Virus record (IMG/VR): IMGVR_UViG_3300043395_001986
Coordinates: 109,308 to 173,307 of that record
Length of the DNA: 64,000 bases
DNA from: a virus
Lineage: Duplodnaviria > Heunggongvirae > Uroviricota > Caudoviricetes
Strand: one strand, 5' to 3'
The stretch's first letter is position 1, and every line of letters starts with the position of its first letter. Under the pieces are notes generated by a model. That model was not told where the DNA came from. It saw only the letters and a program-made list of their open reading frames with translations, and did no database searches. The position numbers and the translations under genes are program-made. Shown here piece by piece: positions 45,196 to 47,754 of the stretch.

Positions 45196-45570
45196 GGGGA
45201 TGCCATGGAATTGATTGCAATGTAAATGGTAGTACCACACGTAGACAAAGGAAGAAAGTCTTTAAATACTTACAAAACAATAACTGACGAAATGTCAACA
45301 ATGACCTTTGATTCTTTAATGGAATTCATCGGCGCTGATTACGCAGTAGCTGCCTAATCACAATCGGGTCGGAATACATATAACCTAGGAACAGAAGTAT
45401 CTATAAAGGTGGAAAATTAACTGAACCCAAAATCGAGTTAAAATAATGATGGCGATGAATTATCAAAACTCGCCTAATTTGTAAGTTTTGATAAAATTTA
45501 CTAAACGTGTGATATGCTGGTATTATTAGTTCTTTGTAAGACAGGGGTTCGATTCCCCTCATCTCCACTA
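45196..45570 (+). ncRNA. ssrA: tmRNA
   Basis: 5' GGGGATG pairs with 3' CATCTCC-A (G3:U); T-arm GGGGTTCGATTCCCC; tag ORF 45286-45357 ends YAVAA*. Confidence 0.92.
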
Positions 45571-45746
45571 AAATTAAATAGTGTGGTATCTGATACTGAC
45601 AGCTCTTTGGGAGTGATGGGTGTGAAAGCAGATTGAAAAGGGTACGACCCAACCCCACACTATTTAATTTAAAAAAATATACAAATATTTTTGGAAAATT
45701 GAATTTTTTGTAGTATATTTGTATATATATAAAAACGAAATAACAT

Positions 45747-45818
45747 CGTGGCGTAGAGCAGAGGTAGCTCACAAGGCTCATAACCTTGGGGTCGCAGGTT
45801 CGAATCCCGCCGCCGCAA
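45747..45818 (+). tRNA. tRNA-fMet (CAT)
   Basis: C1:A72 mismatch; anticodon loop CTCATAA; TTCGAAT T-loop. Confidence 0.88.
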
Positions 45819-45919
45819 CAAATGTTAAGGTTGAAGCCATCAACTAATAAAACCGATTGAGTGACGTATGCAGTACGGAAGAAAGCCGGACACCTTAACA
45901 AAAAAAAAAACCCAAAGAA

Positions 45920-45952
45920 ATTTGGTAGTTTGAAAAAAGTATCGTATATTTG
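45920..45952 (+). promoter_or_regulatory. Bacteroidota-type sigma-A promoter
   Basis: ATTTGG...TCGTATATTTG upstream of the large ncRNA. Confidence 0.75.
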
Positions 45953-46029
45953 TATTGTTAAGTTTGAAACTTATAGGCAATGAAAGATACTCGGTATTCA
46001 AACTTTTAGTTCTTTAAAAGATTAAAAAT

Positions 46030-46565
46030 ACTTTACATAGTAGACTTGTTCTACATAGTAAACAACGGCCGCATATGGTCGTCAAATAAACTACGAAAGT
46101 AGGATAAAGTGGATTGTTAGGTTTACACAATCTGCGGTTTATAGGTCTTTGGACTTATGAGCTTGAGTATGCAAGTGGGGTATCATTTGAGCTTTGTACG
46201 AAAGGGTAACACTATATCGGAAGAGTTTGAATGACCGGGGTAAGTAGATACTTCGGTTGAGTTCGGAAGAACAATAAGAATAACTCATAGAACATCAGTA
46301 AGAAATATAACGCTAATCACTTTATACAATTGCGGTGTTCAATTCAAGAGGAGTCTTAAAACCAAGCCATCCGAAAGGACGTAAGGTATGTTAATGTACA
46401 GGTGGTGCTGTTATTAACCATTGATAAATCGTACCAACGATTATTGGTGAAGATTTCTTATAGAATGGTACTGACGATAGTACATCGGGTAGTTCAGTAT
46501 TCTCTCGACCAAAAGTTGAGGGAACTGGTTGGCAAACCGCTACCTGAACCCATCTACAAACCAAC
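46030..46565 (+). ncRNA. large ornate ncRNA, ROOL/GOLLD-like (family unconfirmed)
   Basis: ORF-poor; several GNRA-capped hairpins; long-range GTAGAT/ATCTAC pairing; upstream promoter; adjacent to tRNAs. Confidence 0.6.
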
Positions 46566-46614
46566 CCTTTTATCAAAATGAGGATTTTGACAATTCAATT
46601 TAAAAATAAAAGCT

Positions 46615-47245
46615 TAAGTGTTTGCCAGTTACGGACGAAAGATGTGTACATAGTAGGGAGCTGTTCCTTGCCACGATACCTTCGCAAGAGGTCTGTGATT
46701 CTTTAAAAAAACTTCTAACACCGCAAGTGTTAATCAGGTCGGCAGATTTGAAGAAGCGGAGTATAAAGAGAGTAAGACGTAACTCAAAGACTGATAGTCT
46801 CAAATCATCCACATTGTATCGGTACTACTCAAAAGGTAGTGGATAAGAAAGGAAACAATAATCTTTCTAAAGTCGGTACTCCCAATGAGGTAATCTCACT
46901 CATTTATTTTTTTACAATGGTTGTATATTGGTTCGATTCCAATAGTAAAAACAAATAGTCCGTTTGCAATAATAGCTCGAATAGTGAGAAAGAAGCAGTT
47001 AGGACTTTAACTAAACAACAAAACCTTTGAAACTATTCACAAGTATCGTGGTCATTTTAGCATAGAGTTCAGATGTGCGAACCTCTCAAGCAGTTTTAGA
47101 CCTAATAAAAAAACTAAAATGTAGCATAGATACATCCGGTTTTGTGGGGAAGTTTTAGACCAATAAATAAACGCAATCTATACGATATGATTGCCAGTTA
47201 TGTAGTAGGCCGCTATAAGAGAGAGCTGTTCCCCTTTTTCTCTCA
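46615..47245 (+). ncRNA. unassigned large structured ncRNA block(s)
   Basis: Multiple hairpins; duplicated TTGCCAGTTA/TAGTAGG/GAGCTGTTCC motif; no convincing ORF. Confidence 0.5.
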
Positions 47246-47350
47246 TTTTAAATGGCTAATTTGACGAGGCTAGTATTAACCAGAGCATGACTTGGATGGC
47301 GTATTTTGAAGTTAGATTAGCTTTTTTAAAAAAACTATATTTATTATAAG

Positions 47351-47446
47351 ATGATGAACTTGAATTTACATACGAATTGTTATCAACCGACGCTTAATGT
47401 GTGGGGTAGCATTATTATGTATAATTCAGGGGATATAAAAGGATAA
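47351..47446 (+). CDS. putative 31-aa leader peptide
   Basis: MMNLNLHTNCYQPTLNVWGSIIMYNSGDIKG*, between an ATATTTAT motif and a terminator. Confidence 0.45.
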   Translation: MMNLNLHTNCYQPTLNVWGSIIMYNSGDIKG

Positions 47447-47474
47447 TAGTATAGTAGATTATATAAATTATTTG

Positions 47475-47508
47475 AAAACCCTGACTTAAAAAAGTTGGGG
47501 TTTTTTTG
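47475..47508 (+). terminator. intrinsic terminator / attenuator before the tRNA array
   Basis: AAAACCCTGACT / AGTTGGGGTTTT stem followed by T7. Confidence 0.8.
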
Positions 47509-47515
47509 TTTATAG

Positions 47516-47589
47516 GCTTCTTTAGCTCAGCAGGTTAGAGCGACTGACTGTTAATCAGTAGGTCCTTGGTTCGAGCCCAAGAAGAAGCG
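47516..47589 (+). tRNA. tRNA-Asn (GTT)
   Basis: Cloverleaf; GCTTCTT/AAGAAGC acceptor stem. Confidence 0.93.
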
Positions 47590-47594
47590 CAATT

Positions 47595-47676
47595 GGGAGT
47601 ATTGTGTAGCGGCAATCACTGCGGACTGTAAATCCGCTCTCATTCGAGTTCGAAGGTTCGAGTCCTTCTACTCCCA
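47595..47676 (+). tRNA. tRNA-Tyr (GTA)
   Basis: Cloverleaf with long variable arm. Confidence 0.93.
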
Positions 47677-47682
47677 CAAAAA

Positions 47683-47754
47683 GCAGGTGTCGTATAATGG
47701 CCATTACTCCTTCCTTCCAAGTAGGAGACGGAGGTTCGATTCCTCTCACCTGCT
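47683..47754 (+). tRNA. tRNA-Gly (TCC)
   Basis: Cloverleaf; U73. Confidence 0.9.

Follow-up and report, generated by a model that had tools for sequence, protein, structure and literature searches.

The locus

We analysed a window of 64,000 nucleotides (nt; 64 kb), positions 109,308 to 173,307 of the IMG/VR virus record IMGVR_UViG_3300043395_001986, and in particular a non-coding block at positions 46615-47245 of that window, to which all coordinates below refer. The source record, a virus of 237,307 bases that is rated complete, is that of a freshwater jumbo phage. The block lies within an RNA island, in which a transfer-messenger RNA (tmRNA; 45196-45568) and a transfer RNA (tRNA), tRNA-Met (45747-45819), are followed by about 1.7 kb without credible genes and then by 20 tRNAs, the first being tRNA-Asn at 47516. 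A preliminary description made from the sequence alone had taken the block for structured non-coding RNA, as our analysis confirmed, and had read a three-part motif found near each of its ends as a sign of either two paralogous, possibly permuted, RNAs or one RNA of about 630 nt, in neither case of a named family. We consider it highly probable that the block instead consists of two unrelated RNAs side by side, the end of a GOLLD RNA and a second RNA (RNA2), with a putative processing signal between them. GOLLD is the known part; the undescribed part is RNA2, an abundant, pseudoknotted companion without an Rfam family. The features of the locus were as follows:

~46000-46908, + strand, whole GOLLD RNA, with a variable 5' domain of ~480 nt and a conserved 3' domain (homology to relatives, depth of RNA contigs)
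46485-46902, + strand, conserved 3' domain of GOLLD, RF02032 (cmscan)
46884-46913, + strand, last GOLLD hairpin, AAUGAG...CUCAUU, with a U-rich tract, forming the GOLLD 3' end (Rfam alignment, single-sequence fold, end of homology, end of RNA cover)
46909-46951, + strand, tRNA-like minihelix of 43 nt (covarying variants, the tRNA-Gly(UCC) slot of relatives, single-sequence fold)
46978-47040, limits approximate, + strand, decayed tRNA-Gly (column-for-column alignment with the intact tRNA-Gly(UCC) of the relative L227)
47043-47327, + strand, conserved core of RNA2, made up of a 5' box, S1, an A-rich linker, E, B and a U-run (RNA contigs, relatives)
47050-47102, + strand, S1 domain, with a closing helix of GGUC 47050-53 and GACC 47099-102 (read by eye)
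47146-47244, + strand, E domain, a pseudoknot (15 viral sequences, covariation)
47255-47327, + strand, B module, tRNA-sized, with a closing helix (47255-65 with 47311-21), a conserved core and a U-run at 47322-27

The first half of the block belongs to a GOLLD RNA

GOLLD RNA was reportedly described by Weinberg et al. in 2009. The conserved 3' domain of the present RNA matched the RF02032 model over positions 1-416 of 416, with 269.1 bits against a gathering score of 150 (E = 1e-75), and only the first ~290 nt of the block (46615-46902) fall within this match. The earlier view that no named family is present is wrong for the first half, where the Rfam match to 46485-46902 runs from end to end. 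For RNA2, Rfam 15 gave no match in 46903-47450 at E values up to 10 with permissive filters. Homology to relatives extended further upstream, covering 46008-46908 in G001 (82%) and 45995-46905 in L190 (90%); a promoter-like site at 45964-45991 is a consensus match only. With limits of ~46008 or 46035 and 46908, the RNA has the length of ~800 nt or more and the less conserved 5' domain that are typical of the family, whose members exceed 800 nt (Kretsch et al., bioRxiv 10.1101/2024.12.08.627333). Its setting is likewise that of GOLLD, in a phage and beside tRNA genes, with tmRNA and tRNA-Met upstream and the 20 tRNAs downstream.

The structure of this half was supported by covariation. According to the Rfam alignment, AGUUACG (46626-46632) pairs with CGUAACU (46778-46784) in a long-range helix, which covaries in at least 12 relatives (AGUUGUG/UACAACU, AGUUGC/GCAACU, AGUUUCA/UGAAACU and AGUCAUU/AAUGACU). 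The next hairpin, at 46652-46670 (GUAGGG-AGCUGUU-CCUUGC, with AGCUGUU as the loop), also covaries in relatives (GUAUUG/CAAUGC, GUUAAG/CUUAGC and GUAACG/CGUUGC). Two further hairpins had been named previously; both are present, at 46716 and 46788, and both lie within the GOLLD match, where TAACAC-CGCAA-GTGTTA is a consensus GOLLD hairpin and AGACTGATAGTCT is drawn differently by Rfam, with an overlapping hairpin in its place. In its full-model match, variable 5' domain, occurrence in a phage, position after tRNA-Met, tRNA island and abundance in RNA libraries the RNA resembles known GOLLD, and nothing material sets it apart: it is another member, from a freshwater jumbo-phage clade. The 14-chain self-assembled cage seen by cryo-electron microscopy is known only from the GOLLD homologue env-38 (Kretsch et al.).

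Deposited phage genomes (INPHARED, distant mode) yielded a single weak match, to the uncultured 634,780-bp phage LR745206.1 (70.6% identity over part of the GOLLD 5' domain, 46067-46291), and no RNA2 relative at detectable similarity. A manA match at 46328-46512, inside GOLLD, scored 17.6 bits against 55.2 and was discarded as noise. Within the GOLLD 5' domain (46112-46244 and 46283-46395), RNA contigs of several runs skipped 131, 97-109 or 79 nt or entered different sequence, which suggests that GOLLD variants found together differ from one another by entire sub-domains.

RNA contigs cover two RNAs with a gap between them

Eleven metatranscriptome runs, from eleven separately coded studies, contained about half of the words of 45900-47600, and the contigs of four runs from four studies were placed on 45700-47700. 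At the 46035 bin depth rose from below 100 into the thousands, and over 46035-46905 it amounted to hundreds to thousands in most bins of three runs, with lower values in run X14 (tens to hundreds). Over 46906-46972 it was 0, 115, 0.9 and 0 in the four runs, with a gap at 46906-46965 over the minihelix, and over 46973-47307 it ranged from 60 to 25,000 in covered bins, X14 being uncovered after 47173. The RNA2 contigs (46966-47179, 47150-47297, 46972-47166, 47096-47279 and 47250-47351) link S1 with E (46966-47179) and E with B (47150-47297 and 47096-47279), and accumulated RNA2 in this phage seems to begin upstream of the conserved core, near 46966. Cover of 47375-47700 was zero in the contigs of all four runs. 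The uncovered parts (45700-46034 and 47375 onward) serve as a contrast only and not as proof of silence; the contrast in depth with these flanks rules out carry-over of DNA as the source of the contigs. We infer the strand from strand-specific G-U pairs and from synteny.

The contig cover, with the gap between its two parts, supports GOLLD and RNA2 as two separate RNAs. A single RNA of about 630 nt is rejected, given that in relatives homology ends at 46908 and a tRNA-Gly follows within 8 nt, and that the RNA contigs leave 46906-46965 bare. A longer unit was also considered, in which GOLLD, minihelix and RNA2 form one transcript of ~1.3 kb and RNA2 is a lineage-specific, cis-acting 3' extension. 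It would agree with the presence of GOLLD just upstream, on the same strand, in 13 of the 13 B-bearing loci scanned with Rfam and in all E-bearing contigs, with the lack of a convincing promoter within 46905-47043, and with the tRNAs that GOLLD linkers can hold (Kretsch et al.). We nevertheless regard such a transcript as unlikely: the stretch at 46906-46965 is essentially bare in the contigs of four runs with flanks in the thousands; many GOLLD phages lack RNA2, B adjoining GOLLD in only 7 of 83 GOLLD loci with downstream room, so that RNA2 characterises a single clade; E and B each occur without the other, and B of a second family lies kilobases from GOLLD within tRNA arrays; and no GOLLD alignment column tracks the palindrome in the H1 loop of E. 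Two separate RNAs remain the preferred reading.

A tRNA-like minihelix at the boundary

In the relative G001, GOLLD stops at the same place and a tRNA-Gly(UCC) follows 8 nt later, as it does in several other relatives. In the present phage this slot holds the minihelix, which consists of a 7-base-pair (bp) acceptor-like stem (46909-15 with 46945-51), a 12-nt, GG-bearing linker (AAUGGUUGUAUA) and a canonical T arm, AUUGG-UUCGAUU-CCAAU (46927-43). A single-sequence fold gave the same two stems. As a tRNA the minihelix yielded no ARAGORN call and no RF00005 match, and a cloverleaf with an anticodon arm is absent. Related contigs held 20 distinct variants of it, and because these keep the T arm (invariant) and the linker while the stem covaries (UUUUUAC/GUAAAAA, UUAUCAU/AUGAUAG, UUAUCUA/UAGAUAG and AUUAUCA/UGAUGAU), the minihelix is not a decaying relic.

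In a tRNA, ribonuclease (RNase) P and RNase Z recognise the stack of acceptor and T arm together with the elbow; since the minihelix keeps both, it is a predicted processing signal. It would be a cutting site for host tRNA-processing enzymes of the RNase P and RNase Z type. Cuts there would fix the end of GOLLD on its 3' side and the 5' side of the RNA that follows, a task that in relatives would fall to the tRNA-Gly for which the minihelix stands in. The 60 nt without contig cover match the position of the minihelix and fit the excision of a tRNA-sized piece; tRNAs were likewise uncovered by the RNA contigs. Comparable arrangements are the tRNA-like 3'-end processing element of MALAT1 (mascRNA) and the tRNA punctuation of mitochondrial transcripts, which share with the present case a tRNA-like fold directly after a long non-coding RNA. 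The difference is that the present element, at 43 nt, comprises no more than an acceptor-like stem, a linker with GG and a T arm, and that cleavage is predicted.

The intact tRNA-Gly(UCC) of L227, with which the decayed tRNA-Gly of the window aligns, lies between GOLLD and RNA2 of that phage; for the decayed gene ARAGORN made no call in the window. Other phages show further states of the slot. A tRNA-Gly(UCC)-like gene with an insert of ~23 nt in the D-loop region (UCCACGCGGGUUCGCCCACGGGU-like) follows GOLLD in L191 (9872-9965), L199, L184 and L235, and none of these four was called by ARAGORN. L190 and L157 carry aberrant tRNA-like genes in the same slot after GOLLD.

RNA2 and its E domain

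The layout of RNA2 was common to 15 viral contigs. One relative, L192, aligned to the window from 45820 to 47381 with 82% identity, and L191, L199, L184, L190, L227 and others were homologous from ~47043 onward. The 5' box, UUCGURGU, lies ~1-12 nt after the tRNA-Gly, the tRNA-like gene or the minihelix in 15 of the 15 E-bearing contigs. Read by eye, the closing helix of S1 covaries (GGUCG/CGACC, AGUCG/CGACU, AGUGG/CCACU and AGUGA/UCACU); RNAalifold found no structure on the MAFFT alignment of S1, in which the subgroups stand one column out of register. The tRNA gene cluster of phage T4 encodes small stable RNAs, species 1 and 2 (rnaC and rnaD), and like these RNA2 is a non-tRNA stable RNA that lies in a phage tRNA cluster and is flanked by tRNAs. 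It differs in being modular, with a pseudoknot and a palindromic loop, and the two are likened by description, with no sequence relation expected.

The E domain contains five helices and a loop with a self-complementary centre:

47146-51 with 47229-34, + strand, helix P1, GGGGAA with UUCCCC (covaries: GGGAAA/UUUCCC, GGGAGG/CCUCCC, GUAGGG/CCCUAC)
47173-77 with 47190-94, + strand, helix H0, GCAAU with AUUGC
47195-99 with 47224-28, + strand, helix P2, CAGUU with AGCUG (covaries: CGGU/GCCG, CGAAUA/UAUUCG, CGAU/AUCG)
47202-05 with 47213-16, + strand, helix H1, GUAG with CUAU
47219-23 with 47240-44, + strand, helix H2, GAGAG with CUCUC (in others AGAGUU/AACUCU, AGGUUU/AAACCU, GGAAAG/CUUUCC)
47208-47211, + strand, GGCC, a palindrome at the middle of the 7-nt loop of H1 (UAGGCCG) and a candidate contact for a symmetric kissing loop

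H2 crosses P1 and P2, and the fold is a pseudoknot because the 3' strands of P1 and P2 lie within the loop of H2. The order of the helices was the same, and their spacing similar, in the 15 viral E sequences, with P1, H1 and H2 in 15 of 15; the exceptions were subgroup 3, which is without P2, and three sequences in which H0 was either unassigned (two) or not located (one). In the MAFFT alignment all six pairs of P1 showed changes on both sides, with 94% of its cells paired. When P1, H0 and H1 were pooled, the paired share was 85.6% of the cells, compared with 72.8% in shuffles (0 of 500 reached the observed value) and 44-54% when the partners were slid. A single-sequence fold of E yielded P1, H0 and H1.

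In subgroup 2, the strands of P1 (47146-47152 with 47226-47234 in the window) are AGGGAGGA and CCGCCUCC(C/U), which resemble a Shine-Dalgarno/anti-Shine-Dalgarno pair; this look is probably incidental, the other subgroups being without it. A 40-codon open reading frame (ORF) across E (47142-47264) was rejected as a gene; relatives carry 1-nt insertions or deletions in it.

The repeated motif is a chance likeness

Every string quoted in the preliminary description was found in place. TTGCCAGTTA occurs at 46622 and 47191 and nowhere else in the window, GAGCTGTTCC only at 46658 and 47223, and TAGTAGG at 46651 and 47203 as well as at five other sites. The two copies of the motif correspond to the following parts of the two RNAs:

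46622-46667, + strand, motif copy 1, a strand of the GOLLD long-range helix and the next hairpin (Rfam alignment, covariation)
47188-47232, + strand, motif copy 2, strands H0-3', P2-5', H1, P2-3' and P1-3' of E

The structural roles of the shared letters thus differ between the copies, and in each copy they have covariation support of their own. A pairing of CAGUU with AGCUG had been proposed for both; it holds in copy 2, where it is the covarying helix P2, and not in copy 1, where CAGUUAC pairs with GUAACU ~150 nt downstream, again with covariation. Aligned locally, with gaps, against the 613 nt downstream of it, copy 1 gave a score of 33.5, which was reached by 0 of 1000 dinucleotide shuffles (mean 20.6, standard deviation 2.9, maximum 31.5) and by 0 of 202 other tiles of the window (maximum 31.0). 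This corresponds to roughly p = 0.002 as a single comparison and is marginal given the free, by-eye choice of segment. In six relatives of the same layout the same comparison gave 17-21.5, which is the shuffle background, and because these relatives do not keep the resemblance, the likeness of the two copies is a coincidence of this genome.

The likeness rests partly on letters that each RNA conserves for its own fold and partly on lineage-specific changes. In copy 2, the letters that match are for the most part conserved in E, and in this genome the match is sharpened by a compensatory change in P2 (CGG/CCG to CAG/CUG) together with a few neighbouring changes. In L192, GOLLD has CUAUCAGUUGUGAAC...GUAUUGAGACGUUCAAUGC, whereas E has GAUUGCCGGUGUAAGUAGUAGGCCACUAC...GAGCCGUUUCCC. 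True paralogy, in which a piece of the GOLLD core was duplicated or gene-converted into the downstream RNA and the copies would have a common origin and perhaps a common function, for instance as a binding site, can point to a three-part collinear match that beats 1000 of 1000 shuffles and all other window tiles, and to two 10-mers that occur at just these two sites in 64 kb. It is, however, very improbable in view of the relatives: six of the same layout show no such match, and most of the matching letters of copy 2 (GAUUGCC, GUAGUAGG, GAGAGAGC.GUU.CCC) are already present in L192 and L227, which have a different GOLLD copy 1 or have lost the match. The differing, covariation-backed roles of the letters and the lack of further collinear similarity in the flanks of the motif also speak against it. 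Two paralogous or permuted RNAs are close to refuted by these letter roles and by the absence of the likeness in relatives; two RNAs are indeed present, but they are not related to each other.

The 9-nt inverted repeat formed by CCACGATAC at 46671 and its reverse complement GTATCGTGG at 47043 was at chance level, at least one such repeat being found in 57% of block shuffles. Its GOLLD arm (CCACGAUAC) lies within a GOLLD stem and its partner is the 5' box of RNA2, which reads UCGUAG in L191, L227 and subgroup 3 and would there disrupt the 9-nt pairing. Pairing in trans was also weighed, with copy 2 mimicking the 5' strand of the GOLLD helix and binding CGUAACU as a folding switch or docking site. 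AGUUAUG of copy 2 could make seven pairs (one of them G-U) with CGUAACU, but we give this reading hardly any credence, as it is contradicted by the relatives, in which the GOLLD 3' strand varies (UACAACU, GCAACU, UGAAACU) and the RNA2 strand independently follows its P2 partner. Chance likeness between two unrelated RNAs remains our reading of the motif. A first pattern scan for the motif gave 120 matches, 75 of which were an unrelated protein-coding gene with a 10-nt gap; the sole true relative was L014.

The palindromic loop of H1

Positions 3-6 of the H1 loop were palindromic in 36 of 36 distinct full-length E sequences, viral and metagenomic (AGCU in 15, GUAC in 13, GGCC in 7, the window included, and GCGC in 1), against a background of 4.9% palindromic 4-mers in the same sequences. 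The self-complementary centre, as expected of a kissing loop, is kept as the sequence changes, through four palindromes. The loop is 7 nt long and its palindrome 4 nt, except in one subgroup with a palindrome of 6 nt (UAGCUA). L301, which has the single GCGC, otherwise resembles subgroup 2; compared with GUAC only the two central letters differ, and its H1 stem is changed from GUAG/CUAC to GUAA/UUAC.

Adjacent loop bases cannot pair with each other in one molecule. The same pattern in OLE L9.3 and GOLLD L21a has been taken to mean that two molecules of the RNA pair with each other (Kretsch et al., bioRxiv 10.1101/2024.12.08.627333), and from this argument and the palindromic loop we propose that RNA2 may self-associate through H1. 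Two RNA2 molecules would join by their H1 loops in a symmetric kissing loop, as in GOLLD, ROOL and OLE, and the sequence pattern suggests dimerisation of this kind as the most likely working principle of RNA2. The symmetric kissing loops of OLE (L9.3), GOLLD (L21a/L21b) and ROOL (L18), as well as the palindromic kissing loop at the dimerisation initiation site of human immunodeficiency virus 1, have in common with H1 a palindromic loop centre that switches across lineages; RNA2 differs from them in sharing neither sequence nor fold with any of them and in that its self-association is predicted. Hetero-kissing of the RNA2 H1 loop with a GOLLD loop was rejected, as the best GOLLD alignment column agreed in 6 of 15 genomes.

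The B module

B has a closing helix of 11-12 bp around an almost invariant core of ~45 nt. The closing helix covaries (AU16/UA9, UA13/CG12 and GC20/CG5), the inner helix covaries between two B families, and the fold has a z-score of -2.2. The U-run that follows may act as a terminator. B was found in 33 viral contigs with one pattern and in 57 with a looser one, and with the looser pattern in at least 99 metagenome loci (99 of 120 among the matches listed). It occurs with or without E, and E also occurs without B. No second copy of B was found in the window's own genome with two mismatches allowed. A hammerhead, hepatitis delta virus-like or kink-turn core did not fit B by eye, and Rfam gave no match.

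A diverged second B family has a CUAACUCAAC...GGUGAGUUAG closing stem and the same core (L251, L181, L185, L256 and others, e.g. L181:1767-1845). Its members sit in tRNA arrays in the manner of a tRNA gene, ~8 nt after tRNA-Met in several contigs, with tRNA-Asp or tRNA-Ser on the 3' side in most, usually 4-9 nt away (spacers ~4-20 nt), and kilobases from GOLLD in the same contigs.

These data bear on whether RNA2 is a cis-regulatory leader, a riboswitch or attenuator for a small ORF at 47351-47446 and the tRNA array, with H2 or the B stem plus U-run as its terminator. The E pseudoknot is riboswitch-like, with a C-rich strand in the H2 loop, B is a stem with a U-run 23 nt before this conserved ORF, and RNA cover ends after B. 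We judge a leader improbable all the same, given that E and B are separable and occur elsewhere, B of the second family lying between tRNAs with no ORF following; that RNA contigs bridge H2 into B; that accumulation to GOLLD-like depth suits a stable RNA better than a leader; and that the palindromic loop pattern would have no obvious place in it. A separate, stable RNA2 is the reading that we retain.

Weight of the evidence and significance

Several points weigh against our interpretation. The raw alignment of the motif is unusual (0 of 1000 shuffles), and a short gene-conversion tract is still conceivable as the source of the likeness. The evidence from RNA consists of assembled contigs, which are blind to ends, to strand and to the single transcript and pool relatives of at least 90% identity. 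The gap at the minihelix could stem from a terminator followed by a promoter instead of from processing. The S1 helix, read by eye, is the weakest of the helices, and when folded as single sequences RNA2, E, S1 and the minihelix had energies no better than those of shuffles (z -0.5 to +0.5). The four palindromes of H1 come from four lineages and represent few independent events, and it is from sequence that dimerisation of RNA2 is suggested. We put forward only tentatively, as a possibility short of even, that RNA2 represents a new class of structured phage RNA with three modules (S1, E and B), which would be released at the minihelix from the transcript of GOLLD and the tRNA island, occur at GOLLD-like levels in rivers and lakes and self-associate by a covarying palindromic kissing loop.

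The finding as originally stated dissolves, one half of the block being textbook GOLLD and the repeat a coincidence. What remains may be of use: right behind GOLLD, freshwater jumbo phages of one clade maintain another structured RNA of equal abundance, parted from it by a minimal tRNA-like element. If the tentative reading of RNA2 is true, it would add a fourth case to the natural homo-oligomers made of RNA alone, in this instance with a genetic link to GOLLD. B, a further undescribed RNA, is tRNA-sized, with a highly conserved core, and fills the slot of a tRNA gene in arrays; it may bear on the manipulation of translation by phages or on tRNA-directed defence.

Other observations at the locus

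The gene order tmRNA, tRNA-Met, GOLLD is kept across the phage clade (tmRNA at 45196-45568 in the window and at L122:751-1163). The tmRNA tag is long, with 23 codons, and alike in relatives (DEMSTMTFDSLMEFIGADYAVAA compared with DAKSTMTFDDLMAFVGADYAVAA). The ORF at 47351-47446, 3' of B, has 31 codons and is kept in relatives with 31 to ~50 codons; the family has in common an LHTNC-like start and a V-G-stop ending, and no RNA-contig cover was seen over it in the window. A hairpin with a U-run at 47474-47505 stops 10 nt before tRNA-Asn.

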